Origin: Spirochaetia bacterium
Lineage (GTDB): Bacteria; Spirochaetota; Spirochaetia; UBA9216
Length of the DNA: 64,000 bases
NCBI GenBank assembly: GCA_963677925.2
Contig: CAXXYH010000003.1
Span: 1,760,001-1,824,000 of the forward strand
Direction: 5' to 3'
Shown: piece after piece, positions 3,218 through 19,515 of the stretch
Layout of the letters: every line of letters begins with the position of its first letter
Position numbering within the stretch: position 1 is the stretch's first letter
Program-made: the position numbers and the translations under genes
Notes under the pieces: generated by a model
What the model was told of the DNA's origin: nothing
Database searches by the model: none
Seen by the model: only the letters and a program-made list of their open reading frames with translations

Positions 3218-4117
3218 TTAAAAAGCAGCAGTGTCAGAGTCCGGCAGTTCACTGAGCAGCATCGAACAGATCCCGAGGACTCCTGCATCGTTGATGTTCT
3301 CGGCTTTTAGAATTTGGACCTTCTCTCCGCTTACAGAAAAGGCTTTCCGCCTTATTTCACATTCAAGCGGTTTGAGCAGAAAATCACCCAGGTTGCCCAG
3401 TCCGCCGCCTATCACTACAGCCGCAGGATTCAGCAGGGTTACAACATTTGAGATCCCTGTCCCAAGGTATTCAAGCAGATGCTCAAAAGCTTTCACCGCT
3501 GAAGACTCTCCATTTTCATAGAGAGTCTTCATATTCTCAGCTGAGACAGAAAAAAGCTCTTCAACAGCCTTGCCTGAGGCTAACTTGTACAGCTCTCCGC
3601 CGCCGGGGAAGATGATGTGGCTAAGCTCGCCTGCGGCACCATGAGCACCCTTATAAACCCTTCCGTCTATGATGATTCCGCAGCCGATCCCCGTACTGAT
3701 ACTGATGTACACAAAATCACTTATATCACGGCCTGCACCGAAGGCTGCTTCACCCGCAGCTGCGGCACGGGCATCGTTTTCAGCGTAAATAAAGGTGCCA
3801 TAGCGCTGCTGAAGTATTTTTCTTATTTCAATATTTTTCCAGCCCTTCAGATTAGGGCAGTCAAATGAGATGCCTGATTTTGAATCGACTGGACCGGGAA
3901 GAGCTATGCCTATTCCTGAAAGCTCACCCGCAGAAAGACCTCCGTCTGTAAGAAGATTATCAATTGTGCCGCAGATATCCTCAATTACATCAGTGCAACC
4001 CCGCTCGGCACCGGTATCTATTCTTAATCTGCCCAGAATCCTGAAATCATCTCCATATTCCGCCAGCACGGAAGCTATCTTGGTCCCGCCGACATCGACG
4101 CCAATAATTCTTTTCAC
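3218..4117 (-). CDS. ROK-family sugar kinase (possible beta-glucoside kinase)
   Basis: GVDVGGTK, ENDARAAA, STGIGCG, GELSH; lacks the CxCGxxGC zinc motif; directly downstream of the GH4 gene. Confidence 0.85.
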   Translation of the reverse strand: MKRIIGVDVGGTKIASVLAEYGDDFRILGRLRIDTGAERGCTDVIEDICGTIDNLLTDGGLSAGELSGIGIALPGPVDSKSGISFDCPNLKGWKNIEIRKILQQRYGTFIYAENDARAAAAGEAAFGAGRDISDFVYISISTGIGCGIIIDGRVYKGAHGAAGELSHIIFPGGGELYKLASGKAVEELFSVSAENMKTLYENGESSAVKAFEHLLEYLGTGISNVVTLLNPAAVVIGGGLGNLGDFLLKPLECEIRRKAFSVSGEKVQILKAENINDAGVLGICSMLLSELPDSDTAAF

Positions 4118-4125
4118 AGAATGCC

Positions 4126-5448: not shown

Positions 5449-5472
5449 GAATAATCCTCCGCTGCGGAAATG

Positions 5473-5498
5473 TAAAAATGTGACCGCACACATTTTTA
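5473..5498. promoter_or_regulatory. LacI-type operator palindrome upstream of the GH4 gene
   Basis: TAAAAATGTG-ACCGCA-CACATTTTTA: perfect 10-bp arms with a central CG, just downstream of the predicted promoter and next to a LacI gene. Confidence 0.75.
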
Positions 5499-5525
5499 TC
5501 ATAACATAAATTTAAACTATGTCAA
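5498..5525 (-). promoter_or_regulatory. sigma70-type promoter for the GH4-ROK unit
   Basis: Minus strand TTGACA(5525-5520)-16 nt-TATGAT(5503-5498) with an extended TG. Confidence 0.6.
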
Positions 5526-6530
5526 TGCAAGACATGAGCTTCGTACTATGAATTCAGAAGCAAGGATCACCTCATCAGGAACTGAGTTTTTACCGGAGAT
5601 AACCGCCATCATCATATCAACAGCAGCAACAGCAATCTTTTCCACAGGCTGCCTGACAGTAGTCAAGGAGGGAGTTATAAACGAAGAATACTGAAGATCA
5701 TCAAAACCGGCAACCGATAAATCCTCCGGCAGTTTAAGACCGGCATCATGAGCCGCCTTAATCATTCCCATAGCCATATAATCATTGGAACAGAACACTG
5801 CAGTAGGAGGATTTTCCCGAGTCATAAGCTCCGAATAGGCTCTGTAACCGCTCTCCAGAGACCAGTCACCGTAATATATCAGCTTTTCATCAGCAGGCTG
5901 TCCGGCGTCCTCAAGCTTCAGTCTGTACCCTTTCAGCCTGTCAGCTGCGTTTATTTCTTCTATATTGCCGCTGACGAAGCCTATCCGCTTGTGACCAAGC
6001 TCCAGAAGATGGGAGACAACACGGGCCGCACTTCCTGTATTATCAACATCAACAAAATTGAATTTCTTCCCCCTGCTTCTGCCCAGAACTACAGTAAAGG
6101 GTATATCATCACCTGAAAGTTTCTCGAGGAAAGGAGCCTCAAACGGGGGAGCAAAAACCATCAGCCCGTCAACCTTTCCCTCCTTATACAGTCCTGAATG
6201 ATCGCTAGCAGAGAGCTCATCATCATGAAGAGATCCCAGAAACAGACTGTAACCGTTTTGTTTGAGCTGTTTTTCAACGGAAAAAAGAAGTTCAATATAA
6301 AAAGGTGCAGTAAGAAGGTATTCTTTTTTCGGGAGAACTATTCCGATGTTATAGGTTTTTCTGTTATTGAGTGCCCTTGCAGCCGCGTTGGGATGGTAGC
6401 CAAGTTCCTCAATCGCCTTAAGGACCCGTTCCTCGGTTTCCTTTTTGACGTTGCCGCATTTATTGACGACTCTTGAAACCGTCATATATGAAACATTGGC
6501 TCTTTTTGCCACATCCTGCTGTGAAACCAC
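5517..6530 (-). CDS. LacI-family transcriptional regulator
   Basis: N-terminal DVAKRANVSYMTVSRVVN HTH, YHPNAAARAL, LSVAGFDD, LTTVRQP. Confidence 0.95.
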   Translation of the reverse strand: MVSQQDVAKRANVSYMTVSRVVNKCGNVKKETEERVLKAIEELGYHPNAAARALNNRKTYNIGIVLPKKEYLLTAPFYIELLFSVEKQLKQNGYSLFLGSLHDDELSASDHSGLYKEGKVDGLMVFAPPFEAPFLEKLSGDDIPFTVVLGRSRGKKFNFVDVDNTGSAARVVSHLLELGHKRIGFVSGNIEEINAADRLKGYRLKLEDAGQPADEKLIYYGDWSLESGYRAYSELMTRENPPTAVFCSNDYMAMGMIKAAHDAGLKLPEDLSVAGFDDLQYSSFITPSLTTVRQPVEKIAVAAVDMMMAVISGKNSVPDEVILASEFIVRSSCLALT

Positions 6531-6549: not shown

Positions 6550-7308
6550 TTAAAGGTGATCTTTAGGAAAAATTATCTCTACTCCGGCCTCTTTGAAGAT
6601 GCCGATATACTCATCAGATATATTCCGGTCGGTAATCAGGTATTGAATATCTTCAACACCACAGTATTTAGACATCGCGATTTTACCGAATTTAGATGAA
6701 TCGGTAAGAATGAAGGTCTGAGGACTCCTTTTGATTATTACCGAGTTGATATCGGCGCGCATCATATCCTTTCCGGTAAAACCTGTGTTCTGCGCAAAGC
6801 CGTCAACACCAATAAATGCCTTGCTGAAGTTCAGATGCTTAAGACATTCCTTTACAAGGTTACCGACAACACACTCACTTTCCGGCTGATAGATTCCTCC
6901 GAGAAGAATAACTCTACCTTCGGAATTTTTTCCTATCTGTCTGGCTATGAAAGCATTCGATGTAATTATTGTAGTAGTCTTGCGCTGCTTGACTATTTCC
7001 TGAGCCAGAAGAGAGTTAATGGAACCCGATTCTATGAAGATGGTTTCCCCCTCTTCAACATAGGAAACAGCAGTCCGGGCAATGCTTAGCTTCTGTTCGT
7101 AATTTATACCCATCCGGTGGGATATATCATCTGTTTCATCAAGAACAGCACCGCCGTGAACCCTTTTGAGAAAGCCGTTGGATTCAAGAGATGTTAAATC
7201 CTGCCTTATAGTAGCGGGAGAGACATCAAGCCTTTCGGCAAGCTCATTAACAGCAGCTTTTTTTCCATCTGACATTATACTTAATATCTGTCTGTGTCGT
7301 TTATTCAT
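6550..7308 (-). CDS. DeoR/GlpR-family transcriptional regulator
   Basis: VSPATIRQDL..LE...RVHGGA HTH, IFIESGS, DSSKFG. Confidence 0.95.
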   Translation of the reverse strand: MNKRHRQILSIMSDGKKAAVNELAERLDVSPATIRQDLTSLESNGFLKRVHGGAVLDETDDISHRMGINYEQKLSIARTAVSYVEEGETIFIESGSINSLLAQEIVKQRKTTTIITSNAFIARQIGKNSEGRVILLGGIYQPESECVVGNLVKECLKHLNFSKAFIGVDGFAQNTGFTGKDMMRADINSVIIKRSPQTFILTDSSKFGKIAMSKYCGVEDIQYLITDRNISDEYIGIFKEAGVEIIFPKDHL

Positions 7309-7310
7309 AA

Positions 7311-8270
7311 TTATTCCAGTGTTAACGCAGCTGCTCCCAGTAATCCGGCATTGTTTCCCAGCGCAGAAGGTCGGATTTCGATTTTATCATACATCATTTT
7401 ATTCACGAGTGACAAGAATTTATGCTCAATCTGATCCAGATAAACCTCGCCGCAATTTGTGAGCCCTCCGCCGATTATAAAGATTTCGGGATTGAGTATC
7501 TGAAAAAGGTTATACAGACCGACACCAACGGCATCAGCTGAATCGCCAAGAACCTTCTTGGAAAGTGCATCTCCTTCCTCAAGGCCCCTCCGCATGGTAA
7601 GACCGTCAAAATTATCTACATTTGAAAGGTCCACACCTATCGTTGATGTCTCTCCGGCTTCGAGATATTTACGGTATAAAGCTGGAAGATACTGTCCGCT
7701 TGAAAGCGACATCATACAGCCGTAGTTTCCGCAGGAACATTGAATATCGGAATGGGGATCAATTATAGTATGACCTACCTCACCTGCAGTACCGGTCATT
7801 CCCCGGATGAGTTTTTTATCAATAATAATTCCGCATCCGACACCGGTACTTACAGTTAGAAAGATCATATCCGAAAAACTTTTGCCCGCACCGAAGCGGA
7901 ATTCTCCATAGGCCTGAGCATTTGCATCATTATCAAGAATTACATGGGTACGGAATTTTCGGGCTACCCGCTCCCGAATCGGATAATTGTTAAAACATGC
8001 CCTGAAGTTACTTGAAGTTATTATAAGTCCCTTCTTGTAGTTCACATGGCCGGCCATGCAGATACCTATGCCGTGAAGCTCTTCATCTGCCACACCGTTG
8101 TTATCCATCAGGCCACGGATAAGGCTTATAACCTTATCCGCTATCCCGTCACAGTCCATGTCTTTGTGATCATATATTTTCAGTTTTTCAACAAGGGTGC
8201 CGTCTTCAAGGAAGAGTCCCGCTGACAGCTTTGTGCCCCCGAGGTCTACTCCGCACAGATATTTTTTCAT
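7311..8270 (-). CDS. ROK-family sugar kinase (GRE locus)
   Basis: GVDLGGTK, DNDANAQA, STGVGCG, GEVGH..CSCGNYGC zinc motif; start taken at MKKYLCG (8270). Confidence 0.9.
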   Translation of the reverse strand: MKKYLCGVDLGGTKLSAGLFLEDGTLVEKLKIYDHKDMDCDGIADKVISLIRGLMDNNGVADEELHGIGICMAGHVNYKKGLIITSSNFRACFNNYPIRERVARKFRTHVILDNDANAQAYGEFRFGAGKSFSDMIFLTVSTGVGCGIIIDKKLIRGMTGTAGEVGHTIIDPHSDIQCSCGNYGCMMSLSSGQYLPALYRKYLEAGETSTIGVDLSNVDNFDGLTMRRGLEEGDALSKKVLGDSADAVGVGLYNLFQILNPEIFIIGGGLTNCGEVYLDQIEHKFLSLVNKMMYDKIEIRPSALGNNAGLLGAAALTLE

Positions 8271-8289
8271 ACAGCCTTCCGGAAAATCA

Positions 8290-9261
8290 TTATACAGCTT
8301 CTCTCTTTCGCTTTCTGCTGTAGCTGTCAAGACAAAGAATGGTTACAACAACAATTCCCCTTATTACTTCCTGAATATAGGGGCTGATCCGGAGCATGTT
8401 CATACTGTTTTCCATAACTCCGAAAACAAGGTAACCGAGCATGGCAAGAGGAGCTCCGCCGACTCCGCCGGCCAGGGAGGTACCGCCTACAACTACCGCA
8501 CTAATTACAACAAGCGGTATCCGGTCTCCGTAGATTGAATGGCCGGTATTAAGTGTTGAGGAAAGCAGTACACCCGAAAAGGATGCCGCAGCACCACAGA
8601 TAACATAGGTTGCGGCCTGGATTTTTTTAACACTGATTCCGGAATATTCAGCAACCTCGAAATCACCTCCGATTGCATAGATATTGCGTCCAAACTGGGT
8701 ATACCGGAGAAGGAAGTGGGTAATTACAAATACAACAAGCATAATGACAATCGAATTCGGTATAAATCCGAAAATTGTTCCGTTACCAATCATCATAAAT
8801 TCATAGTTGTCAGGTGTGATAGGGTGGGCGTCTGTAAGCTGCTGTGCAACACCGGTTAAAACCATTCCCATACCGAGAGTGATTATAAACGGAGCACATT
8901 TCTGATACACGACCAGAAATCCGTTCACAGCTCCAATCAGAGCACCGACAATAACCGCAAGGACTATCGACAGCCAGATCGGAACACCGGCATTCATGAA
9001 CATAATAGAAACTATTCCGCCAAGGCAGAGAGTACCTCCGATAGAAAGGTCTATTCCCTCACCTATAATTACAAGCGTAATTCCGAAAGCAAGAACTATA
9101 TAGATTGATGCGGAATTAAGCAGATCAAGCAGGTTGTAGCTTGTAAAGAAATATGTGGGAAAAAAGAGCATCAGTATAAACATTGCCAGAATAGCCATTA
9201 CCGCTTTCTGCCTTGTAAGCTTCTTTAAAATTGTTTTACCTTTAGGATAATTATTCATCAC
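8290..9261 (-). CDS. sugar ABC transporter permease (RbsC family)
   Basis: GIDLSIG, TQFGRNIYAIGG, AVVVGGTSLAGG motifs; multiple TM segments. Confidence 0.92.
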   Translation of the reverse strand: MMNNYPKGKTILKKLTRQKAVMAILAMFILMLFFPTYFFTSYNLLDLLNSASIYIVLAFGITLVIIGEGIDLSIGGTLCLGGIVSIMFMNAGVPIWLSIVLAVIVGALIGAVNGFLVVYQKCAPFIITLGMGMVLTGVAQQLTDAHPITPDNYEFMMIGNGTIFGFIPNSIVIMLVVFVITHFLLRYTQFGRNIYAIGGDFEVAEYSGISVKKIQAATYVICGAAASFSGVLLSSTLNTGHSIYGDRIPLVVISAVVVGGTSLAGGVGGAPLAMLGYLVFGVMENSMNMLRISPYIQEVIRGIVVVTILCLDSYSRKRKREAV

Positions 9262-9269
9262 CGCGCCTC

Positions 9270-10277
9270 CTAGTGCTGCCTCTTGGTGTCAAGCCAGATG
9301 GCTACGACCAGAACAAGTCCTCTCATGACGTATTGCATGTAAACATCAACCCCCAGCAGGTTAAGACAGTTGCCAAGCAGAATTACAAGCAGCGTACCGA
9401 TTACAGTACGTATTACGCTTCCCTTACCGCCGAGCAGCGAGGTACCGCCAACTACTACCGCCATTATGGCCTGTGTTTCATAGCCTTTTCCCAGAGTGGG
9501 AGAAGCCTGAGTTACCCTTGAAAAGAGAATGATACCGCTTAAACCGGCCATAAACCCGTTGATGGTAAACATGCTGATGATTCCCTTTTTAACAGAAATA
9601 CCGGCAAGTCTTGCTGCGGTTTTGTTTCCACCGAGAAGATTGATTGTACGGCCGAGATAGGTTTTATTCTGAAAAATATAGAGAATTACAAAAACAAAGA
9701 TAAATATCAGAAATGATACCGAGAATATTCCGACCGTACCTGAACCGATAACAGTGAAGAGTGAATAATCAGCCTCCATATATGTCAGGTAGTGGGTTAC
9801 ACCTCCTGTATACAGCATTGCAAGTCCGCCGAAAACAACCATGGTTCCATAGGTGATAAACAGGGCTTCAGCCTGTGTGATAGCACCGCTCACCAGTATC
9901 AGCAGACTGTTGATAAAGCCGCACACCGCTCCGGCAATCAGCCCGATGATAAGAGCCGGAACCATTCCAAGCGGCTCGATAAGTGAGTGGGTGATGACAA
10001 CTACCAGAGGAATTGTTCCGGAAACTGATAGGTCAATAAACCCGCCTATAATTACAAAGGTCATTCCGAGGCAGACCATAATCAGAGGCCCGAACTGACG
10101 CATGATATTCGTCATATTGGCAACAGTCGCAAATTTTGGTTCAACGATTATAGTTACAATGGCCAGTACGGCAATAGCGAAAAGGACCATGTATTCCTTT
10201 GAGAACTCAATAATCGCCTTTCTGATTTTCGAATCAGCAACCGGAACTGCTTTTACTGGTGTATTATTTTCGCTCAT
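9270..10277 (-). CDS. sugar ABC transporter permease (RbsC family)
   Basis: GFIDLSV, TYLGR..GGN..AARLAGI, AVVVGGTSLLGG. Confidence 0.92.
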   Translation of the reverse strand: MSENNTPVKAVPVADSKIRKAIIEFSKEYMVLFAIAVLAIVTIIVEPKFATVANMTNIMRQFGPLIMVCLGMTFVIIGGFIDLSVSGTIPLVVVITHSLIEPLGMVPALIIGLIAGAVCGFINSLLILVSGAITQAEALFITYGTMVVFGGLAMLYTGGVTHYLTYMEADYSLFTVIGSGTVGIFSVSFLIFIFVFVILYIFQNKTYLGRTINLLGGNKTAARLAGISVKKGIISMFTINGFMAGLSGIILFSRVTQASPTLGKGYETQAIMAVVVGGTSLLGGKGSVIRTVIGTLLVILLGNCLNLLGVDVYMQYVMRGLVLVVAIWLDTKRQH

Positions 10278-11782
10278 GATTCCGTCCCTTTATCAATAAA
10301 CTCAAATGCTTTTTCCATTATTTCATGTGTTGACGCCTTTTCAGGATCAAATTCGCCCGTAATCCGGCCGTCACAGATTGTAAGCACACGGTTGCTCATA
10401 TTCAGAACCTCCGGCAGCTCCGAAGATATCAGTATTACAGAACCGCCCTTGCTTACAATATCCTTCATAAGCAGATAGATTTCATACTTCGCACCAACGT
10501 CAATACCCCTTGTCGGTTCATCCATTATCAGGATACGCGGTTCAAGTTCGAGCCAGCGGCCGACTATACATTTCTGCTGATTTCCGCCGGAAAGGCTTTC
10601 AGCCCTTGTTTTAGCCGACGGGGTTTTAATATTAAGAGCCTTAATCTGTCTTTCAGCTATTGCCTTCTCATCTCCCTTTTTAAGAAAGCCAAGCTTTGTC
10701 GTCATCCTGTCGAGACTCGCCATTGAGATATTTGACTCTACGCTGAAGGGGAGAATGAGGCCCTGCAGTTTCCGATCTTCAGGAACAAAGGATATTCCTG
10801 CAGCCTTGGCATCGGCAGGTTCCTTGATTTTTACAGGTTTTCCGTCAATCAGGATTTCATGGCCGAAGGTCCTGTCTGCACCGAAAATTGCCCGGACTAT
10901 CTCAGTCCTTCCTGCTCCTACAAGACCGACAAAGCCCAGTATTTCACCTTTTTTCAGCTTGAAGGATACATCCTTTAATTTCTTTGTATTTATTGAGCGT
11001 ACTTCCATGAGTGTATCACCGACATTTCTAGGACGCTCGGGAAATTCATTTTCAATTGACCGGCCGACCATTTTGGCAATCATTTCACCTCTGGTTATCT
11101 CTCCGATCGGTTTTGTATCGATGACCTTGCCGTCACGCATTACGGTGACCATGTCGCAGTAGTTGAATATTTCATCGAGTTTATGACTTATATAGATGAT
11201 AGATATTCCCTGTTCTTTGAGATGTGCAATAATCCTTGCCAGATGCTTCATTTCATCATCTGTAAGACTGCTGCTCGGTTCATCCATGATAATCAGTTTT
11301 GAGTCGAATGAAAGAGCCTTCGCTATCTCGACCATCTGTTTTTCAGAAACGCTCAAATCTCCAACAAGGGTATATGTATCAATTTTAGAACCTATACTGT
11401 CAAGAAGCTCACGTGCCTTTGCATGCGTGCCCTTCATACCTTTCAACTCTCTGAAACGGCCCAGAAAAACATTTTCTCCCACTGTCATCGTATTTACGAT
11501 ATTCAGTTCCTGATAGATGATACTCAGTCCCATTTCCATCGACTTATGGGGTGTTGTTGACTTGATATCTTTTCCGTCAAAAGTAATTGTGCCTGAATCT
11601 TTTACATGTACTCCTGATAAAATCTTCATCAGCGTAGATTTACCGGCACCGTTCTCCCCTACTATACCGTGAACCGTTCCCCGCCTGACATTAATGGAAA
11701 CATCATCAAGCGCCTTAACACCGGGAAAGGTTTTATTTATGTTTTCAACTGAAAGAATGTATTCCGGCATCTTATCATTCAT
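10274..11782 (-). CDS. sugar ABC transporter ATP-binding protein (RbsA/MglA family, duplicated NBD)
   Basis: GENGAGKST, IIMDEPS, LSGGNQQK, DEPTRGIDVGAK; start uncertain (TTG 11791, ATG 11782 or 11770). Confidence 0.95.
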   Translation of the reverse strand: MNDKMPEYILSVENINKTFPGVKALDDVSINVRRGTVHGIVGENGAGKSTLMKILSGVHVKDSGTITFDGKDIKSTTPHKSMEMGLSIIYQELNIVNTMTVGENVFLGRFRELKGMKGTHAKARELLDSIGSKIDTYTLVGDLSVSEKQMVEIAKALSFDSKLIIMDEPSSSLTDDEMKHLARIIAHLKEQGISIIYISHKLDEIFNYCDMVTVMRDGKVIDTKPIGEITRGEMIAKMVGRSIENEFPERPRNVGDTLMEVRSINTKKLKDVSFKLKKGEILGFVGLVGAGRTEIVRAIFGADRTFGHEILIDGKPVKIKEPADAKAAGISFVPEDRKLQGLILPFSVESNISMASLDRMTTKLGFLKKGDEKAIAERQIKALNIKTPSAKTRAESLSGGNQQKCIVGRWLELEPRILIMDEPTRGIDVGAKYEIYLLMKDIVSKGGSVILISSELPEVLNMSNRVLTICDGRITGEFDPEKASTHEIMEKAFEFIDKGTES

Positions 11783-11834
11783 TTCTCTCAACCTCTTTCT
11801 TTGTAAGCTTTTTCTTTTTTAGATAGATGAGGGA

Positions 11835-11935
11835 GCAATTTCAAAAACTTTTAGAGTCTCACTTCCTGCGTTTTGAAATTGCCTCTATGAATAAGCCCGT
11901 TTAAACATAATCATGTAAAAACGAGCTTATTTCAT
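11835..11935. repeat. two tandem intergenic inverted repeats between the SBP and ATPase genes
   Basis: GCAATTTCAAAA(11835-46)/TTTTGAAATTGC(11871-82) perfect 12-bp IR; second imperfect IR AATAAGCCCGTTT...AAACGAGCTTATT within 11887-11935. Confidence 0.65.
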
Positions 11936-11954
11936 TTCTTTTACCAGTTAAATC

Positions 11955-12905
11955 CTACCACTCAGGAGGAGTGAAAGTATCGATATTTGAAAGGTCTACT
12001 ATATCAAGCGGAATGAAGTTTACAACTTTGATTGATTTGCCGTCCAGAAGATCTCTGGCTGTCTGCATTTCTATCATTGCCATATTTTCAAAGTTCTGCA
12101 TAATGGTGACACTCTGCCGGCCGCTTCTAACCTGGTCAAAACCTGCCCTGTTGCCGTCTACACCTACGATAAATTTTCCGGTCATACCTGCTGCGTCAAG
12201 TGCATTGAGTATACCTGTTGCACCTCCGTCCCAGTGACAGAATATACCTTCAATTTCTTCACCGTATTTAACAATCATGTCTTCCATTATCATCATAGCC
12301 TGGTTTGTATCCCACTGCTGACATGCTTTGTAATCAATAACTTCAAGTTTTGAACCAGCAATTTTCTTGTTGAAACCATCATGTCTCTTGATCTGAGCGT
12401 CATGTCCTGACTGACCGCCTATCTCAACAATCTTTGCACCGTTGGGGAATTTGTTCAGGAATGCCTGACCTGCAGCTTCACCAGCCATAAGGTCGTTAAC
12501 GCCTACGAAGAAATCACGCGCCATGTCAGCACTTTCTGCAGGAACGTCTGATGAGAACATACCTACGATAACACCGGCTTTCTTGGCTTTAATAAGAGCG
12601 GGAATAACCGCGTTGATATCATTGGGGTTAACAAATATAGCTGCGAATTTCTGAGCTACAGCATTATTGATCAGCTGGGTTTCAACCTGAGCATCACCCT
12701 TACCGTCAAGAATTGTTACATCAAAATTATATTCAGCTGCATGTTTTTCAAACATTTTTGCTGCAAAAGCCTGTGACGGATTTGCAATTTCACCCGGAAT
12801 AAAGGCAACTTTTTCCATTCCGCCGGCAGCTTCCTGCTGACCGCCTGCAAATGCCATAGTACCAACCATTAATACTATGCAAATCAGTACAATTACTCTT
12901 TTCAT
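11955..12905 (-). CDS. sugar ABC transporter substrate-binding protein (RbsB-like, Peripla_BP_4)
   Basis: Signal peptide ending AFAGGQQE; LDGKGD, RHDGF, IVGVDG, TIMQNF motifs. Confidence 0.9.
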   Translation of the reverse strand: MKRVIVLICIVLMVGTMAFAGGQQEAAGGMEKVAFIPGEIANPSQAFAAKMFEKHAAEYNFDVTILDGKGDAQVETQLINNAVAQKFAAIFVNPNDINAVIPALIKAKKAGVIVGMFSSDVPAESADMARDFFVGVNDLMAGEAAGQAFLNKFPNGAKIVEIGGQSGHDAQIKRHDGFNKKIAGSKLEVIDYKACQQWDTNQAMMIMEDMIVKYGEEIEGIFCHWDGGATGILNALDAAGMTGKFIVGVDGNRAGFDQVRSGRQSVTIMQNFENMAMIEMQTARDLLDGKSIKVVNFIPLDIVDLSNIDTFTPPEW

Positions 12906-13001
12906 TTAAGTCCTCCATTAAAAAAACAAATTCTTAATTAAAATCTAAACCAACCTAACTCTCTGTTGAAAAAAAGATGCAAACCTCCTTAATACTGATT
13001 T

Positions 13002-13478
13002 TCAGTTTTTATCTGTATCCTTACGGACAAATTCCCTTAATACTGACACAACAAGTTCATGGTCTTCCACATCAGGCAGACCGCTGACTGTTACAGACCC
13101 GATAGTCCCGGTCTCTTTTATTATGATTGGAAATGATCCGCCGAATGGTGCATATTCACCTCCGTCAAGAAAGTAAAGTTCTTCGAGTGATTTTTTCTTT
13201 TCAAGCAGCAGCTCTTTCATATAAAGGGAACTTTTACCGAAGCGGTCCGCGATTCTGCTTTTCCGGATTATCCAGCTGTCGTTATCAGCTGAAGTCCCTT
13301 CAATCGCGTAATGAAATATCTGCTGTCCATGCTTTCTTATATCAACTGTAACTACTTGATCCTTGAGACGGGCTACCTCTACAAGCCTAAGTCCAAGCTC
13401 AAGAGCCATTGAATTCGAAAAAGAACTGAATTGAAGCTCTGAATGCTCTTCGTCTCTGGCTTTCAATATGCTACTCAT
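13002..13478 (-). CDS. heme-degrading-domain (GlcG/HbpS-like, UPF0303) protein
   Basis: GTSADNDSWIIRKS, GGSFPI, TVSGLPDVEDH motifs. Confidence 0.85.
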   Translation of the reverse strand: MSSILKARDEEHSELQFSSFSNSMALELGLRLVEVARLKDQVVTVDIRKHGQQIFHYAIEGTSADNDSWIIRKSRIADRFGKSSLYMKELLLEKKKSLEELYFLDGGEYAPFGGSFPIIIKETGTIGSVTVSGLPDVEDHELVVSVLREFVRKDTDKN

Positions 13479-13503
13479 TTTCCATCTTTCGCCTTAAATT
13501 AAT

Positions 13504-13567
13504 CTTTCGTATGATAGTATTTATTTATCGTATGTGATACGATACACCATCAAATTACAGTTGTCAA
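13504..13567 (-). promoter_or_regulatory. promoter and operator of the UPF0303-ABC-ROK-DeoR operon
   Basis: Minus strand TTGACA(13567-62)-17-TATCGT(13544-39) overlaps the perfect palindrome TATCGTAT-GTG-ATACGATA (13526-44); extra half-site CTTTCGTATG at 13504, 21 bp away. Confidence 0.7.
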
Positions 13568-13645
13568 ATTTTATTTTCAGGGATTCACCCTTTTAATTGC
13601 CAAAATCAGAGTGTTCTGGTAAAAATATGCAGAAAGGATTAACAG

Positions 13646-14566
13646 ATGAACGGAACAGTTTTTGATTTTAAAAGATTCGCAGTGCATGACGGGCCTGGGA
13701 TAAGAACCACCCTATTCCTAAAAGGCTGCCCGCTGGGCTGTCTCTGGTGCCACAACCCCGAAGGTATTAATATCAAACTCAGTCTCTGGTTCTTTGAACG
13801 TAAGTGCATAGCATGTAAATCCTGTGTTGAAACCTGCAGCTTCGGAGCGCTTACAGCAGCATTACCCGGCGAGCCTTTTATAAAAATTGATCATGACAAA
13901 TGCACACGCTGCGGCGACTGTGTCGCAGAATGCCCTACAAAGGCGCTCAGCTTCGACGGATACTATATGTCGGTTGATGAGGCCGTAGAGGAACTGCTTA
14001 AAGACAGGGAATTTTATGAAACTTCAGGAGGCGGTATTACAATATCCGGCGGAGATCCCGTTTTTCAGCCTGATTTCAGCAAAGCGGTATTAAGCGCATG
14101 CAAAGAGCGAGGTGTCCACACTGCAATTGAATCATCCATGTTTACAAAGTCTGAAATTCTTTTAAGTTTTACCGAATGCACCGATCTATTCATAGTCGAT
14201 ATAAAACTGATTGATAACGAGATGCATAAAAAGTACACCGGAACCGATAATCGCATTATTCTTGATAACTTCAAACAGCTGTCTGCAGTCCATTCCGAAA
14301 TACTTGTTCGCATTCCCTTGATACCCGGAATAACAGCAACACCCGGGAATGTTGAAGCAGTTGCCTCCTTTGTATCGGAGACTGCGCCAGGAACGTCACT
14401 TGAATTGATCAATTTCAATCCTCTTGCGGAAAGCAAGTACCATACAATGGACAGGGATTATGAAGTGCTTATGGGACTTGAACCCCTTACCGAAGGGGAA
14501 CTGGATGAGCTGTATTCAATACTTGAGAAATACGAACTTAACCCCGTCAGAGAAAAGAAGATTTAA
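13646..14566 (+). CDS. glycyl-radical enzyme activating enzyme (radical SAM with 2x[4Fe-4S] insert)
   Basis: HDGPGIRT..FLKGCPLGCLWCHNPE, CIACKSC / CTRCGDC ferredoxin insert, GGITISGGDP, RIPLIPG. Confidence 0.95.
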   Translation: MNGTVFDFKRFAVHDGPGIRTTLFLKGCPLGCLWCHNPEGINIKLSLWFFERKCIACKSCVETCSFGALTAALPGEPFIKIDHDKCTRCGDCVAECPTKALSFDGYYMSVDEAVEELLKDREFYETSGGGITISGGDPVFQPDFSKAVLSACKERGVHTAIESSMFTKSEILLSFTECTDLFIVDIKLIDNEMHKKYTGTDNRIILDNFKQLSAVHSEILVRIPLIPGITATPGNVEAVASFVSETAPGTSLELINFNPLAESKYHTMDRDYEVLMGLEPLTEGELDELYSILEKYELNPVREKKI

Positions 14567-14577
14567 GGCATATTAAA

Positions 14578-14620
14578 ATAAAAAAGGCTGAGCAGAACAA
14601 ACTGACTCAGCCTTTTTTAT
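14578..14620. terminator. bidirectional intrinsic terminator between the convergent activase and GRE genes
   Basis: ATAAAAAAGGCTGAG...CTCAGCCTTTTTTAT. Confidence 0.85.
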
Positions 14621-14631
14621 CTGCAGATTAT

Positions 14632-17019
14632 TTACATTGTCTGCTCTGTCCTTGAAATAATATCATTCTGGGTTTCTGTTGAAAGGTTAGTGAAAAAAGC
14701 TGAGTATCCGGCAACCCTGACTACAAGATCGTTATACTCCTCAGGTTTCTCCTGAGCCTCAACAAGGGTTTCCTTATCAACAATATTGTACTGTATGTGC
14801 CAGCCCTTGAGATCATCAAAGAATGTATGCAGCATTGAAATCAGTTTTTCCCGGTTTGCATCTGAATCAAGAACTGCAGGTGTGAATTTCTGGTTGAGCA
14901 GTACTCCGCCCAGGATTCGGTCAGTCGGAAGCTTTCCGATGCTCTGAAGAACTGCTGTCGGTCCGCATCTGTCCGCACCGGCTGAGGGAGAGGCTCCTTC
15001 AGCAAGCGGAGTCCAGGCTTTTCTTCCGTCAGGAGTAGCCGGCACTACCGCACCTGAGGGAACATTACTTGAAATACTGGAAGTACCTCCGTAATAGCGG
15101 CAGCCGATTGCAGGGCTTCCCTTTCTGATAGTGCTGTATTTTTCAACCTCATCAAGGTATTTATCGTAGGCATCACCAAGCAGATTATCTACGTAATCTT
15201 CATCATTTCCGAACTTCGGGGCAAAGTTAAGAAGAATCTGTCTCAGCTTCTCACCTTCCGGCCCTGCGAAATCGTTTTCAATGGCATTCATGAGCTCTGA
15301 GGGGCTTATGCGCTTTTCTTCAAAAACAAGCTTCTTTATTGCAGCAAGAGAATCTCCAAGGTTGGCTATTCCAACCTGAAGACCAGATTCAAAATCATAC
15401 TTGCTTCCGCCTTCATGGATCGTAAGCCCGCGGTCAAGACAGTCATCGGTGAAGGCTGAACAGATAATATCGGGTGCTTCATCCCGCAGTACTACATCAA
15501 TTGCTGAATCGATTGCAACACCGGCCTTTGCAAAAAATCTCACCTGCTTTTCCCAGGCATCCATCACCTGGCTGAAATCGGTAAAATCGGTAAATTTTCC
15601 GGTACCGCTGCAGAAAGTTTTTCCGCTTACGGGATCTTTTCCATCATTAAGAGCCGCAAGGAAAACCCTCATAAAATTGAGAAAGTGCTTTCCGGTACAT
15701 CTGTATCCCCATTTACCGGGCACCGCTGTCTCAATGCATCCGATAGCCGAGTAATCCCAGGCATCTTCGGGTTCAACGCCGAGGTCAAGGAATGATGGGA
15801 TTACTATTGAGTCATTATTGAAAGCAGGCATACCGAAGCCCAGCCGGATTACCCTGATGCATTCACGCAGAAACTCGTTGTCAATTCCCGGATGAAAGCG
15901 GACTGAAAGATTCGGCTGGGTCAGTTTTGTCTCGCCTACTGATTTAAGAATCAGAAAGGATAAGTCGTTTACGGCATCTGAACCGTCCTGAAGCTGACCT
16001 CCTATCGTAACATTCTGATAAAGCGGTCCGCCGGCTGAAAACCGGGTATGCGACCAGGAGCGGATCTTTTTGATACTGACAAGTTTGAGCCAGAGGTTTT
16101 CAAGAAGTTCCATCACCTCATCATCATTTATCAGGCCCTTATCCGCATCCTCTTTATAGAAGGGATACAGATACTGATCCATCCTTCCAAGTGACAGAGA
16201 ATGCCCGTTGCTCTCTATCTGAAGAACAAGCTGCACAAAATATGTCAGCTGAAGAGCCTGGTAGAAGGTCTCAGGTTTACCTGCAGATATGCTGCGGCAG
16301 TTCTTTTCTATTTTTTCAAGCTCTGCTTTCCGCTGCTCACCGGTTTCGGTTCGGCTCATTTCCAGTGCAAGGTCTGCAAAACGGAGTATAAAATCCTGCA
16401 TGGCTTCAAGGCTCATTATAACCGACTGGTAAAACAGCCGCTTTTTAATGTCCTCGCCTGATATAAAATCCGAGGTTTCAAGTTTATCTGAAGCTTTTTT
16501 CTTAAACCACTCCAGGCCGTTTTCAAGAATGAGTCTGAAATGGGCGGCTATGTGCGCATCACCGGAGGTCAAATTTCCTTCAGCCCGAATTATTCCTGTT
16601 TCGTGAATTTCCAGAAGTTCCTCTGCCATCATTGCTCGGCCCTTATCAAGGGTGGTTTTATTTTCCCAGTATCTGCAGAGTTCAAGAAGCTCTTTTTTTA
16701 TTTCATCTGAGGGGTAGAAGGCATCACCGCTTCTTTTCTCAAACTCATCGATTTCTTTTTCAATCCACTCAACAGCATATTCGGGGAAAATCGGAGCAGC
16801 ATAAATAGCAGAAGAATGGTTTCCAACTATCAGATCTTCCGGTTCTATCCTGATACTCATGTTTTCCAGAGTATCCCGGAGAGCATAAGCTCTTTTTATG
16901 ATTACCGGTTTGTCCTCATGCTTTTTATAGGCTTCAGTATAAAACCGAGCCCTTTCAATACACACTGTAGGTTTAGTTTTGAGAATTCTTTCCCGATAGC
17001 TGCTGATTCTGCCAGTCAT
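14632..17019 (-). CDS. glycyl radical enzyme, YbiW/PflF subfamily (probable 1,5-anhydro-alditol-6-phosphate ring-opening enzyme)
   Basis: RVAGYSAFF glycyl motif; single-Cys GCIETAV loop; AEGNLTSGDAH, QIESNGHS, PLYQNVTIGG, KWGYRCTG, TSSIS and GGVLLNQK segments match E. coli YbiW as recalled. Confidence 0.88.
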   Translation of the reverse strand: MTGRISSYRERILKTKPTVCIERARFYTEAYKKHEDKPVIIKRAYALRDTLENMSIRIEPEDLIVGNHSSAIYAAPIFPEYAVEWIEKEIDEFEKRSGDAFYPSDEIKKELLELCRYWENKTTLDKGRAMMAEELLEIHETGIIRAEGNLTSGDAHIAAHFRLILENGLEWFKKKASDKLETSDFISGEDIKKRLFYQSVIMSLEAMQDFILRFADLALEMSRTETGEQRKAELEKIEKNCRSISAGKPETFYQALQLTYFVQLVLQIESNGHSLSLGRMDQYLYPFYKEDADKGLINDDEVMELLENLWLKLVSIKKIRSWSHTRFSAGGPLYQNVTIGGQLQDGSDAVNDLSFLILKSVGETKLTQPNLSVRFHPGIDNEFLRECIRVIRLGFGMPAFNNDSIVIPSFLDLGVEPEDAWDYSAIGCIETAVPGKWGYRCTGKHFLNFMRVFLAALNDGKDPVSGKTFCSGTGKFTDFTDFSQVMDAWEKQVRFFAKAGVAIDSAIDVVLRDEAPDIICSAFTDDCLDRGLTIHEGGSKYDFESGLQVGIANLGDSLAAIKKLVFEEKRISPSELMNAIENDFAGPEGEKLRQILLNFAPKFGNDEDYVDNLLGDAYDKYLDEVEKYSTIRKGSPAIGCRYYGGTSSISSNVPSGAVVPATPDGRKAWTPLAEGASPSAGADRCGPTAVLQSIGKLPTDRILGGVLLNQKFTPAVLDSDANREKLISMLHTFFDDLKGWHIQYNIVDKETLVEAQEKPEEYNDLVVRVAGYSAFFTNLSTETQNDIISRTEQTM

Positions 17020-17044
17020 AATAGCTCCATATATTTTTGTATTT

Positions 17045-17073
17045 ATAGTATTTACTTTTCATATGAAAGTCAA
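17045..17073 (-). promoter_or_regulatory. GRE promoter with palindromic operator
   Basis: Minus strand TTGACT(17073-68)-17-TACTAT(17050-45); the palindrome TTTCATATGAAA (17057-68) occupies the spacer and abuts the -35 element. Confidence 0.7.
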
Positions 17074-17207
17074 TAAATCATAATTGCAAATTCTAAATAT
17101 TAGCCTTTTTATATACATTTATCCTGCTCTTTTACAATTTTCAGGCCAGGACTGCTTCAAAACAGGGCAATATGAATTGCTTTTATAACATTACAGAATT
17201 ATTAAGA

Positions 17208-17249
17208 TTGACAAGCCTCTTTCACTGCCTTATCATCTTTATACGAAAG
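17208..17249 (+). promoter_or_regulatory. promoter and operator of the AroE-like/RmlD-like operon
   Basis: TTGACA(17208-13)-17-TATCAT(17231-36), followed by ATACGAAAG (17241-49), the exact reverse complement of CTTTCGTAT at 13504. Confidence 0.7.
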
Positions 17250-17307
17250 TTATTTATTATCATTTAAACTTTATATATTTTCTTTCAAATAAAACAGGAG
17301 AGCAGTT

Positions 17308-18171
17308 ATGAAAGAACAGAATTATCTGGATAATCTGGTCGGCGTATTCGGCCATCCGGCAGCAGAAAACCCCGGAGTAGTCATACAGGAGGCTGCATTT
17401 GAAGCTATGGGCCTTGAACGCTGGCGCTTTCTTACAATTGATGTTGATCCAGGAAAACTTGCAGATGCCATAGCAGGACTGAAAGCAATGAAAATGAAGG
17501 GCATAAACTGCACAATCCCTCATAAAATTGAAGTTCTTAAATATCTTGATGAAATATCTCCAAGCGCAGAGCTTATCGGTGCAGTGAACATGATAGTAAA
17601 CAAGAACGGAAGACTTTTCGGTGAAAACACCGACGGCAAGGGCTTCATGGAATCACTAAGAAACTCCGGAATCTCTCCTGAAAACAAGAAGGTTTTAATT
17701 CTTGGCGCAGGCGGCGCAGCCCGCGCAATATCAGTCGAACTGGCCTTTGCCGGAGCAGAGCGGATAACCATTGTTAATATCCCCAGGGATGAAGATCTTG
17801 CAGTATCACTGATAGAAACATTAAAGGCCAACACAAAGGTAAACGCGGAATATGTGCCATGGACTGAAAATTTCTCAGTTCCGGAAGATACGGAAATTCT
17901 CATTAATGCGACGCCAATCGGACTGTATCCGGATGTTGATGAAAAACCGCCTATCAACTATGATTCAATCCTGCCCGGAATGTATGTTCAGGATGTAATT
18001 CCAAACCCTGCGTACACACCCTTTCTTGACGAAGCCAAAAAACGGGGTGCCGGATGGAGCACCGGCATGGGAATGCTTATAAATCAGGCAGCTATAAATA
18101 TAAAGATGTGGACCGGCAAAGACCCTGACAAGGAAGTTATGACAAAGGCTTTTCAGGAAGTCATAGGCTGA
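17308..18171 (+). CDS. shikimate dehydrogenase-family oxidoreductase (atypical substrate-binding motif)
   Basis: NCTIPHK, GAVN, NTDGKG, LGAGGAARA, INATPIG; N-terminal GHPAAENPG replaces the canonical GxPxxHSxSP. Confidence 0.85.
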   Translation: MKEQNYLDNLVGVFGHPAAENPGVVIQEAAFEAMGLERWRFLTIDVDPGKLADAIAGLKAMKMKGINCTIPHKIEVLKYLDEISPSAELIGAVNMIVNKNGRLFGENTDGKGFMESLRNSGISPENKKVLILGAGGAARAISVELAFAGAERITIVNIPRDEDLAVSLIETLKANTKVNAEYVPWTENFSVPEDTEILINATPIGLYPDVDEKPPINYDSILPGMYVQDVIPNPAYTPFLDEAKKRGAGWSTGMGMLINQAAINIKMWTGKDPDKEVMTKAFQEVIG

Positions 18172-18189
18172 GTCCGTAAAGGATACAAC

Positions 18190-19056
18190 TTGAAAAGGAT
18201 TTTAGTAACAGGCAGCAGAGGATTCGTAGGCAGCAGGTTTATCCGTGCATACGGTGATATTTTCAGCATTACCGGGACATCATCTGTGGAACTGGATCTT
18301 AAAAACTACAGTGCAGTGCTTGAGACCTTTAAAAACGTAAAGCCTGATATTGTACTGCACACATCAGCAATCGCCCAGACCGCATACTGCAACGATAATC
18401 CTGAACTCTGCCATGCAGCCAATGTAGATGCTTCACTGAATATAGCCAGGGCATCTGATATCTCAGGAGCAAGATTCGTTTTCCTGAGCACCGAGCAGGT
18501 TTTTAACGGCAACAGCAGTCCCGGTCCCTACAGTGAAACAGATAAAGCAGAGCCTGACACCGTATACGGACAGAACAAGCTTGAAGCCGAAGGACAGATT
18601 CAGGCAGTCTGCAGTGACAGCCTTATACTCCGGCTTACCTGGATGTTCGGTGTACCGGAAAACGGAAGCCCCGTATCCGATAACATCCTATGGGGGACAC
18701 TGAAAAACATCATAAAAGGAAAACCTTTCAAGGTTCCGGACAATGAATACAGGGGTCTCACATATATCGGGGATCTAATAAGGGAATTCAGCAGGATTCT
18801 GGAACTTCCCGCCGGTATTTATCACACAGGCTCAGAAAACAGCCTCAGCAGATATGAAACGGTCCGGCTGATCTTCAATGAAGCAGGCCTCGGGGATAGA
18901 TTTGACGAGCTTGTAATCAGGGATACTGAGAAGTACAGGGATGCAGCCAGGGATATAAGACTTGATACATCAAGGCTGAAATCAGCCGGCATTACATTTC
19001 CTGAAAGCACTGAAGCACTGGCCGCCTGCATCAGAGACTACAGCCTTACCTTCTGA
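18190..19056 (+). CDS. RmlD-like extended SDR (sugar/sugar-nucleotide reductase)
   Basis: ILVTGSRGFVG, FLSTEQVFNG, YGQNK catalytic YxxxK, LILRLTW. Confidence 0.8.
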   Translation: MKRILVTGSRGFVGSRFIRAYGDIFSITGTSSVELDLKNYSAVLETFKNVKPDIVLHTSAIAQTAYCNDNPELCHAANVDASLNIARASDISGARFVFLSTEQVFNGNSSPGPYSETDKAEPDTVYGQNKLEAEGQIQAVCSDSLILRLTWMFGVPENGSPVSDNILWGTLKNIIKGKPFKVPDNEYRGLTYIGDLIREFSRILELPAGIYHTGSENSLSRYETVRLIFNEAGLGDRFDELVIRDTEKYRDAARDIRLDTSRLKSAGITFPESTEALAACIRDYSLTF

Positions 19057-19092
19057 TTGATTGGATCGGCGTTCCCGGTATATTATCTGTTT

Positions 19093-19515
19093 ATGGTAAG
19101 CCCCGATCTTCTTGAAAAAGATATCGAAAAAAGCGGAGTATTCTCATTCTCCAGATCAGCCGGTCCCGGCGGTCAGAACGTCAACAAGGTCAACAGCCGG
19201 GTAACTCTTACTGTTCCGGTTGAAGAGATCTACTCACTCAGTATTGAAGAGAAAGACCGTCTCAGAAGAAAACTGGCAGGAAGAATAAACACAAAGGATG
19301 AGCTGTTCATAAGCGTCCAGCAGGAACGCTCGCAGCTTCGAAACCGTGAAATAGCAGTAGAAAACCTGACCCTGCTGATCTGCGACAGCCTTCGAAGAAA
19401 CAAGAAGCGAAAAAAAACAAAACCCTCACGCGCCGCTGTCGAAGCCCGAATAGCCGACAAAAAACGGCGCGCCGGCATTAAAAAGAACCGTAACTTCAGC
19501 AACGGAGATTATTAA
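19093..19515 (+). CDS. arfB: alternative ribosome-rescue peptidyl-tRNA hydrolase
   Basis: RSAGPGGQNVNKV, ERSQLRNR, basic C-terminal tail RKKTKPS..KKRR. Confidence 0.92.
   Translation: MVSPDLLEKDIEKSGVFSFSRSAGPGGQNVNKVNSRVTLTVPVEEIYSLSIEEKDRLRRKLAGRINTKDELFISVQQERSQLRNREIAVENLTLLICDSLRRNKKRKKTKPSRAAVEARIADKKRRAGIKKNRNFSNGDY

Follow-up and report, generated by a model that had tools for sequence, protein, structure and literature searches.

We analysed a 64-kb stretch of DNA, called the window below, from contig CAXXYH010000003.1 of a marine-type Spirochaetia bacterium whose genome measures 5.04 Mb and is 99.6% complete. The window holds a gene cluster with a glycyl radical enzyme (GRE) of the YbiW family, its activase, an ATP-binding cassette (ABC) transporter, a ROK-family kinase, a DeoR-family regulator and two reductases (Table 1). 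The gene map is based on the listing of open reading frames (ORFs) and on Pfam and NCBIfam family scans of the window proteins. An earlier note on this DNA had placed an operon with the order UPF0303-SBP-ATPase-two permeases-ROK-DeoR (SBP, periplasmic sugar-binding protein) and an AroE-like/RmlD-like pair on the two flanks of the GRE and activase genes, and our analysis found the same gene content and order. The GRE and activase were also found to be arranged tail-to-tail around a bidirectional terminator, as had been described, with a hairpin lying between the two converging stop codons. This element consists of an A-run, a hairpin and a T-run; its predicted fold has an energy of -24.2 kcal/mol (z -5.9), and none of 200 shuffles folded as well. 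A consensus terminator scan did not list this hairpin. The closest named relative is a Spirochaetia metagenome-assembled genome, whose GRE is 98% identical and whose locus (L001) is called the near-twin here.

Table 1. Features of the GRE cluster in the window, with family scores and other supporting data.
Feature	Position	Strand	Support
DeoR-family regulator, last gene of the transport/kinase operon	6550-7308	-	PF00455 150 bits, PF08220 62 bits
ROK-family sugar kinase, no helix-turn-helix domain	7311-8330	-	PF00480 204 bits; real start probably about 8276
CUT2-type ABC permease (BPD_transp_2)	8290-9261	-	PF02653; the pair of permeases scores 143 and 115 bits
CUT2-type ABC permease (BPD_transp_2)	9270-10277	-	PF02653; the pair of permeases scores 143 and 115 bits
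Double-cassette ABC ATPase	10274-11791	-	PF00005, two stretches
Periplasmic sugar-binding protein (SBP), Peripla_BP_4	11955-12905	-	PF13407 166 bits
UPF0303/HbpS-like protein, first gene of the operon	13002-13478	-	PF03928 92 bits, NF002696 170 bits
21-nt element, copy 1, candidate operator or promoter core	13514-13534		18/21 identical to 17045-17065
GRE-activating radical S-adenosylmethionine (SAM) enzyme, ferredoxin-like insert	13646-14566	+	TIGR02494 323 bits (cut-off 174)
Bidirectional intrinsic terminator between converging activase and GRE	14578-14620		Hairpin fold
YbiW-family GRE, 795 aa, 'KH' subclade (K444, H445, H535)	14632-17019	-	PF02901 679, PF01228 115, TIGR01774 984 bits
21-nt element, copy 2, overlapping the predicted -10 of the GRE promoter	17045-17065		18/21 identical to 13514-13534
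AroE-like ketoreductase, 5-ketofructose-reductase type	17308-18171	+	TIGR00507 220.7 bits; best PDB match 7cok
RmlD-like short-chain dehydrogenase/reductase (SDR)	18190-19056	+	TIGR01214 142 bits (cut-off 224)
ArfB ribosome-rescue gene	19057-19515	+	NF006718 112 bits

Searches against the PDB showed that the best matches of the window GRE are Enterobacter ECL_02896 (6xs4, 951 bits) and E. coli YbiW (8id7 and 8yjn, 948 bits), followed among other GREs by glycerol dehydratase (613 bits), propanediol dehydratase (541 bits) and PflD (529 bits). The enzyme is about 53-54% identical to E. coli YbiW; in a library of representatives at 50% identity, the closest is 54% and the second 50% identical to it. 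An AlphaFold (AF2) model of the GRE (predicted local distance difference test score, pLDDT, 91.0; predicted template modelling score, pTM, 0.92) was superposed on 8id7, the structure of YbiW with 1,5-anhydroglucitol-6-phosphate bound, with a template modelling (TM) score of 0.99 and a root-mean-square deviation of 1.3 Å at 53% identity. A maximum likelihood tree of 44 rows (quick search, LG+G4, support by the SH-like approximate likelihood ratio test, SH-aLRT) placed the GRE in a subclade with an SH-aLRT of 99. This subclade, the KH subclade, is monophyletic, has as its sister a Cyclobacteriaceae sequence with the canonical motif, and lies within a larger YbiW clade (SH-aLRT 96) whose 18 YbiW-family rows include the enteric enzymes; the PflD-like sequences were placed outside this clade. 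By tree, bit scores and fold, the GRE is therefore inside the YbiW group, where the earlier note had put it.

The catalytic motifs agree with this placement. In the alignment to 8id7, residues C428 and E430 of the Cys loop GCIET align with YbiW Cys441 and Glu443. The part of a 2026 review that deals with this enzyme describes Cys441 as the hydrogen-abstracting residue near C2 and Glu443 as the base that binds the C2-OH, and notes that the Cys-x-Glu motif is common to GRE eliminases also (PMC13450708). The glycyl radical motif RVAGYS was found at residues 768-773, with G771 invariant in the alignment. The GRE is thus a YbiW-family enzyme by identity, placement and catalytic motifs.

Passages of the same review state that YbiW and PflD open 1,5-anhydroglucitol-6-phosphate and 1,5-anhydromannitol-6-phosphate to 1-deoxyfructose-6-phosphate (PMC13450708), and section 5.1 of another source assigns uptake and phosphorylation in the E. 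coli pathway to the phosphotransferase system (PTS) (PMC12441222). The window locus has the same-clade GRE and activase, the conserved Cys-x-Glu and glycyl motifs and a fold nearly identical to 8id7, all in common with E. coli anhydroglycolysis. However, it has ABC import and a ROK kinase where E. coli has uptake and phosphorylation by PTS, it adds a DeoR regulator and two extra reductases, and its M444K, S445H and K535H are specific to the KH subclade. The earlier note had seen no PTS gene and no gene for fructose-6-phosphate aldolase (FSA) in the region, and our family scans of the cluster found neither.

The neighbourhoods of related GREs were compared in two scans. The genome scan covered the best 80 of 219 GRE relatives, which form 78 distinct loci, 66 of enteric type and 12 non-enteric (L001-L011 and L057). 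Eight KH loci were counted in genomes (L002, L003, L005, L007, L008, L009, L010 and L057), with the near-twin L001 left out. The metagenome scan, with the subclade alignment as query, covered the best 80 of at least 322 relatives, 6 of them of KH type and 74 others; absences in these loci are weak evidence because many of the contigs are short. An FSA homologue of at least 60% identity was found in 61 of the 66 enteric-type loci, in the order FSA-activase-GRE. In Citrobacter (L064), for example, the gene before the activase is FSA (NF009296, 405 bits). The window locus and genome, unlike the enteric loci, have no canonical FSA. A tblastn search with Citrobacter FsaA found nothing in the window's genome or in any spirochaete locus. 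FSA was above the cut-off in one of the five other subclade genomes (G002), three of the five being small, incomplete assemblies. Among the 74 non-KH metagenome loci, 14 have FSA right after the GRE and 30 have the ROK kinase, while 30 have neither and none has both. The ROK-type and FSA-type contexts of these GREs are distinct. A Pfam scan of 37 further ORFs, from ten metagenome loci and L004, found no aldolase and no PTS gene.

The regulator and the kinase are the neighbours that recur most often. DeoR homologues (38-66% identity) stand beside YbiW-family GREs in 6/8 KH genome loci, 3/6 KH metagenome loci and 37/74 other metagenome loci, the DeoR of L003 being split into two ORFs. ROK homologues of at least 38% identity were found beside the GRE in 3/8 (38-45%), 3/6 and 30/74, respectively. 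The three KH metagenome loci with ROK also have DeoR; two contigs shorter than 4 kb hold the GRE with a GMC oxidoreductase or alone, and one of 2.2 kb holds a partial GRE followed by UPF0303. In the non-enteric genome loci with the canonical motif, the order is AE-GRE-ROK-DeoR in L004 (AE, activating enzyme) and GRE-ROK-DeoR in L006, and nothing recognisable was found in L011. The same CUT2 ABC set is present in three KH genome loci (L003, L008 and L057; SBP 65-69%, ATPase 73-76% and permeases 60-67% identical) and in 7/74 non-KH metagenome loci (SBP 40-67% identical); a different, CUT1-type ABC transporter is present in one of the eight KH genome loci (L005). RmlD-like copies (47-53% identical) were found in three of these eight (L002, L005 and L010). 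AroE-like copies, 62-67% identical, were found in 4/74 non-KH metagenome loci (L102, L129, L130 and L158) and were absent from the other 14 KH-subclade loci (8 genome and 6 metagenome). UPF0303 was found in none of the eight KH genome loci, but lies beside GRE or ABC genes in L112, L129, L130 and L096 (by Pfam in L096); the count among the non-KH metagenome loci is 2/74 plus L096. Conservation of the neighbours with the GRE in other genomes, on which the earlier note had made its proposal depend, was thus observed, for DeoR most widely and for the other parts in fewer loci.

For the ROK kinase, the best PDB match is the S. griseus glucokinase GlkA (3vgk, 170 bits). It belongs to the same fold family as the GlkA-type ROK glucokinases and has all their kinase and zinc motifs, with DxGxT, ExGH and CxCGxxGC intact in the alignment to 3vgk; it differs from them in that its lineage travels with YbiW-family GREs. 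The ROK Pfam domain spans residues 26-338 without a second domain, and the protein is below the TIGR00744 cut-off (201 vs 260 bits). The SBP scored 101 bits to the RbsB model (cut-off 337) and was above the cut-off of no curated monosaccharide-binding family; none of its PDB matches exceeds 85 bits, the best being ribose-binding proteins. The top NCBIfam models for the ABC ATPase are likewise monosaccharide ATPases, every one under its cut-off. The UPF0303 protein matches the yeast UPF0303 protein YBR137W (4clc). The activase is 41-53% identical to activases of L002, L003, L005, L008, L010 and L057, and in L002, L003 and L010 that homologous activase adjoins a PflD-like GRE.

The AroE-like protein is above the cut-off of the AroE model TIGR00507 (200.2 bits) and for this reason risks annotation as shikimate dehydrogenase. 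Its best PDB match is the 5-ketofructose reductase 7cok (247 bits), and true shikimate dehydrogenases reach at most 186 bits. The N-terminal Ser-x-Ser (HSxSP) motif of shikimate dehydrogenase binds shikimate. The window protein does not have it, reading GHPAAENPG where M. jannaschii AroE has HSFSP and a fused AroD-AroE candidate of the same genome has HSKSP. At this site the window protein has AENPG, 7cok has ADNPT and the four GRE-linked homologues have (A/S)ENPG. That fused candidate is a 491-aa protein on contig C4 whose C-terminal part scored 203.6 bits to the AroE model; at full length it is a weak match to a bifunctional dehydroquinase/shikimate-dehydrogenase model. With the Ser-x-Ser missing, the closest match in 5-ketofructose reductase and a separate AroE candidate in the genome, we rejected shikimate dehydrogenase as the function of the window protein.

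Passages of one source document 5-ketofructose reductases as relatives of shikimate dehydrogenases that reduce a keto-sugar (PMC7954740). The (E/D)NP motif and the catalytic Lys and Asp of the 5-keto-D-fructose reductases described there (KFR of Tatumella and Gluconobacter; 7cok) are common to the window protein. Unlike in those enzymes, its context of GRE, ROK and ABC genes would point to 1,5-anhydrofructose rather than 5-ketofructose as the substrate. It is a plausible anhydrofructose reductase by analogy, because 5-ketofructose in its pyranose form and 1,5-anhydrofructose share a ring ketone beside the ring CH2-O. Stereochemical reasoning suggests that anhydrofructose would become 1,5-anhydromannitol if its ketone were reduced in the stereochemical sense in which 5-ketofructose gives D-fructose. 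In L129 and L130 the genes run DeoR, UPF0303, AroE-like, permease, permease, ATPase, SBP; there the AroE-like gene lies within the transporter operon, which strongly supports its membership of the system.

The RmlD-like SDR has the GxxGxxG and YxxxK motifs, falls under its model's cut-off and has no rml gene context. The other RmlD of the genome scored 293 bits and is next to RmlC (246 bits) on contig C4, and the window protein is, as judged from sequence, a paralogue of this RmlD of the rml cluster. Both reductases are therefore extra, as the earlier note had called them, with the fused AroD-AroE candidate and the RmlD beside RmlC encoded elsewhere. The best structure for the RmlD-like protein is Trichomonas vaginalis RmlD (9gpi, 185 bits), at 32% identity in a Foldseek search with a model of only moderate quality (pLDDT 72), a match that says nothing about anhydro sugars.

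Other oxidoreductases accompany the related GREs. In 4/8 KH genome loci the gene immediately following the GRE encodes a GMC oxidoreductase, and GMC genes were found in L005, L008, L009, L010 and L095. GFO/IDH/MocA oxidoreductases are present in 2/8 KH genome loci (L008 and L010), with levoglucosan dehydrogenase as the best curated model, at 261-274 bits and far under its cut-off of 650; another is in L094. An aldo-keto reductase (AKR) was found in L003 and L009. These AKR, GFO and GMC enzymes fit a keto/alcohol interconversion of an anhydro sugar. The anhydrofructose reductase of Sinorhizobium morelense also belongs to the GFO/IDH/MocA family, relatives of which are in L008, L010 and L094 and not in the window cluster. 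That bacterium offers a parallel in part, for in passages of PMC12441222 a specific reductase of Sinorhizobium turns anhydrofructose into anhydromannitol, so that the S. morelense route likewise opens with the reduction of anhydrofructose to an anhydro-alditol. It is described there as aerobic, with oxidative ring opening via mannose, whereas the route of the window would be radical and anaerobic.

Our analysis also showed a PflD-like GRE in the window's genome, at C3:1625515-1627905, 150 kb from the window GRE and with 654 bits to PflD (8yjo). E. coli carries the same YbiW and PflD pair. PflD, with PflC, is the C-O lyase for 1,5-anhydromannitol-6-phosphate; the PflD-like copies of the relatives are 3-10 kb from the YbiW-like GRE, whereas in the window's genome the distance is 150 kb and no activase adjoins the PflD-like gene. 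No radical-SAM gene was found among the 13 ORFs scanned around it, and it is flanked by deoC, AraC-type regulators, a major facilitator superfamily (MFS) transporter and a conserved protein of about 600 aa without a family. PflD-like GREs (37-38% identical) accompany the KH enzyme in 3/5 other subclade genomes. Three of the eight KH genome loci contain one as a second GRE, and a fourth is 9.6 kb away in the L005 genome. In 2/74 non-KH metagenome loci (L142 and L158), a PflD-like GRE occurs with an activase and the protein of about 600 aa. In total, seven PFL-like GREs are encoded in the window's genome (contigs C3 and C4; loci L079-L085), five of them 31-34% identical to the window's, and only two activase-like genes were detected with the window activase as query at a coverage of at least 60%.

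Promoter-like sites precede all four transcription units, and their total in the region (34) is modestly above the 24.9 +/- 5.2 expected from shuffles. The earlier note had proposed an operator shared by three of the four promoters. For two of them, those of the UPF0303 operon and the GRE, this was upheld: the two copies of a 21-mer (Table 1) are in the same orientation, and 3 of 200 dinucleotide shuffles reach an equal match. The copies lie 36-56 nt upstream of the UPF0303 start codon and 26-46 nt upstream of the GRE start codon, and no other site was found in the window at up to four mismatches. Both are kept in the near-twin with 1-2 changes; the 21-mer was found in none of the 16 more distant related loci scanned. 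The AroE promoter shares only an inverted 9-mer, CTTTCGTAT, and the sharing of exact words between the two divergent promoter regions is not above chance (k=9; 187 of 1,000 shuffles do as well). We therefore credit the shared element to two promoters, not three. At the activase promoter no shared element was found. A 14-mer operator pattern derived from the same data was dropped as circular. The 21-nt element would be a candidate operator for the DeoR regulator.

From this gene set we infer the following order of steps. The CUT2 ABC transporter would import a 1,5-anhydro sugar, which may be 1,5-anhydrofructose, 1,5-anhydroglucitol or 1,5-anhydromannitol. If anhydrofructose is imported, the AroE-like protein, the RmlD-like SDR or both would reduce the ring ketone with NAD(P)H to an anhydro-alditol. 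The glucokinase-like ROK protein would then phosphorylate C6 with ATP, in place of the PTS step of E. coli. The activase would install the glycyl radical on the GRE, in which Cys428 would abstract a hydrogen from C2 and Glu430 would deprotonate the C2-OH, so that the ring C-O bond would be cleaved to give 1-deoxyfructose-6-phosphate. An enzyme other than FSA would process this ring-opened product. The targets of DeoR, which probably senses a sugar phosphate, would include the GRE and the transport/kinase operon, both reached through the 21-nt element. The PflD-like GRE 150 kb away probably handles the mannitol epimer with the activase of the window, and the pair of reductases could provide the two epimers on which the YbiW-like and PflD-like GREs act, if the analogies above hold.

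Our preferred reading, to which we give a probability of about 0.6, is that the locus encodes the radical anhydroglycolysis route for 1,5-anhydro-hexoses in a variant form that does without PTS and FSA. The earlier note had ranked the cluster as its best candidate for a new system. This is too strong, for the locus is a rewired form of a published pathway and is common in environmental metagenomes; since the GRE-ROK-DeoR wiring is common there, the system is not unique to the window's genome. No description of the ABC/ROK variant was found in the literature searched, the coverage of which stops short of the primary paper, in which Ma et al. (JACS, 2024) reportedly set out the anhydroglycolysis pathway of E. 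coli YbiW/YbiY. Environmental anaerobes, among them Spirochaetota, one Cyclobacteriaceae genome and metagenome lineages, are thus indicated to run the radical step with an ABC and ROK front end and without an FSA back end. The locus and its relatives suggest that anhydro sugars do serve as a carbon source where oxygen is absent.

Several points weigh against this reading. Most of the conserved blocks are the same as in YbiW, but M444K, S445H and K535H set the window GRE apart from all canonical YbiW sequences examined. The ABC, AroE-like, RmlD-like and UPF0303 genes each recur in a minority of loci, and operon membership alone is weak evidence because the unrelated ArfB gene directly abuts the RmlD-like gene. 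Two PTS EIIC genes are above the cut-off elsewhere in the genome, more than 500 kb away, so 'PTS-independent' describes the cluster and not the organism. No match to the FSA model TIGR00875 was above the cut-off in the 99.6%-complete genome. The known downstream step, the cleavage of 1-deoxyfructose-6-phosphate by FSA, is therefore missing, and this could mean a different product.

The earlier note had pointed to two motif differences from E. coli YbiW, and both were seen in the alignment to 8id7: RCTGKHF in place of RCTGMSF, and RSWSHTRFSAGG in place of RSGSHSKASAGS. The second is not special to the window locus. Non-enteric relatives with the canonical RCTGMSF, such as representative P0001, likewise have the RS.SH...SAG loop in its W322/R326/F327 form, and near-variants of it are in L004 and L006; the enteric loop is therefore the odd one, and the W/TRF difference is general to non-enteric YbiW homologues. 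The first difference is confined to the subclade. When 9 subclade sequences were aligned with 10 that have the canonical motif, eight positions proved invariant within the subclade and carried a residue never seen outside it (E84, T123, L124, K444, H445, G500, H535 and R641). In the ten canonical sequences, position 444 is Met in all, 445 is Ser in nine and Cys in one, and 535 is Lys in all. Residues 444 and 445 closely follow the Cys loop; by the alignment to 8id7, the three positions correspond to M457, S458 and K550 of YbiW. Among 86 sequences in a broader alignment, K444, H445 and H535 are coupled in 14/14 full-length subclade sequences, and every other sequence has K535. All named genome loci of the KH subclade are from Spirochaetota. 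No second YbiW-family member accompanies the KH enzyme in the window's genome or in five other genomes of the subclade, which argues that it replaced the canonical type and was not added beside it. An intermediate was observed in a metagenome locus, L096, whose GRE has M444, H445 and K535 together with E84, T123, L124 and G500 of the subclade; its cluster has the order AE-GRE-ROK-DeoR-SBP-ATPase-two permeases-UPF0303-second ROK.

The same architecture might thus serve a KH enzyme with changed specificity, for another phosphorylated cyclic ether or anhydro sugar or with another mode of phosphate binding, and with a product that does not need FSA. The perfect coupling of the three residues, the eight clade-defining positions and the L096 intermediate would agree with this, as would the lack of FSA in the genome and an SBP above no curated monosaccharide-binding cut-off. 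However, the subclade keeps the accessory set of its canonical relatives (ROK, DeoR, an ABC transporter of the same family at 55-69% identity, GFO, GMC and a PflD-like GRE), and the KH enzyme replaces the canonical type without coexistence. The Lys has apparently moved from 535 to 444 and was not lost, which fits retained anion binding. Nor is the absence of FSA specific to the KH subclade, because the ROK-type loci with the canonical motif have no FSA either (0/30). We consider changed specificity possible but doubtful. A bolder form of it, which we hold to be rather unlikely, is that the substitutions (a pocket Lys moved from 535 to 444, His445 gained) retune the GRE to a different anhydro or cyclic-ether sugar phosphate and that, with the lack of FSA, the locus represents a second radical pathway of ring opening, in which both the substrate and the downstream enzyme are new and which is fed by a keto-sugar reductase of the shikimate dehydrogenase family. 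It is improbable that the GRE is instead a 1,2-eliminase (dehydratase) on a sugar phosphate or polyol, as in the older name 'probable dehydratase YbiW'. The next-best structures are indeed glycerol and propanediol dehydratases, and Cys-x-Glu is shared with eliminases in the part of the review cited above (PMC13450708), but the enzyme lies inside the YbiW clade with 53-54% identity to demonstrated isomerases, and the PflD-like partner fits an anhydro-sugar pair. Quite improbable, in our view, is that the flanking genes are bystanders, that is, housekeeping AroE and RmlD genes and an ABC/ROK operon for an ordinary sugar such as ribose or glucose. The AroE score above the TIGR00507 cut-off, ArfB in the same transcription unit and the accessory genes missing from many related loci would suit that explanation. 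Against it stand the fused AroD-AroE candidate and the rml-cluster RmlD elsewhere in the genome, the missing Ser-x-Ser, and the recurrence of AroE-like, RmlD-like, ABC, ROK, DeoR and UPF0303 genes beside YbiW-family GREs in unrelated contigs. We therefore keep the variant anhydroglycolysis route as the preferred reading.

For the fate of the product in this route, several genes were considered. Two TAL_FSA-family proteins are encoded on contig C4 (PF00923, 148.6 and 114.3 bits; open frames of 369 and 346 aa). They keep the Schiff-base Lys and other conserved residues, and in a poorly aligned stretch have Gly at the site aligned with Tyr131 of FSA, a numbering that we take to be right and that is consistent with the Citrobacter sequence. 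They were rejected as FSA, having no FSA-like signature. The deoC gene beside the PflD-like GRE (L088:9751-10503, in the own genome C3:1624751-1625503; TIGR00126 200 bits, cut-off 117) is a candidate for cleaving the ring-opened product and is not conserved in the relatives. On the supply side, the GH31 family includes glucan lyases, a possible source of anhydrofructose, and one weak GH31 match (37.5 bits) was found in the genome.

Two further protein families recur near these GREs. The conserved protein of about 600 aa, without a Pfam or NCBIfam match, was found in L088:12919-14781 (own genome C3:1627919-1629781), L003:18135-19952, L142 and L158, directly beside PflD-like GRE/activase genes in four unrelated contigs. 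A protein-atlas feature search grouped it with hypothetical proteins of Spirochaetota and Bacillota and gave a weaker lead (0.93) to ROK-family clusters; it could be a kinase partner of the PflD-like enzyme. A barrel protein of 265-269 aa, weakly related to ribulose-phosphate 3-epimerase (RPE; 62-65 bits, rpe cut-off 213), was found in L003:17263-18072, L008:10322-11119, L107, L138 and L142. It adjoins a GFO-family oxidoreductase in GRE loci and has no homologue in the window's genome. Like the TAL_FSA-family proteins and deoC, it is a candidate for a substitute of FSA.

In the near-twin L001, positions 12624-17761, the activase (71% over 256 aa) and the SBP (62% over 245 aa) gave only partial matches, and the ATPase and one permease were not recovered, which reflects either an assembly error or real decay. 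On the other side of the window cluster, ArfB starts at the base right after the stop codon of the RmlD-like gene and is apparently co-transcribed with both reductases. A second sugar-redox neighbourhood was found in L089 (own genome C4:272001-290000), with a TAL_FSA-family protein, an SDR, a tartronate-semialdehyde-reductase-like protein, a GFO-family protein and an AKR; this GFO-family protein is 45-53% identical to those of the GRE loci L008 and L010. Directly 3' of DeoR and on the same strand, window positions 3218-6530 encode a LacI regulator, a GH4 glycosidase and a second ROK protein. This block may be a separate glycoside module; it is kept in the near-twin, and in L104, too, a LacI homologue (44%) lies ahead of the GRE.

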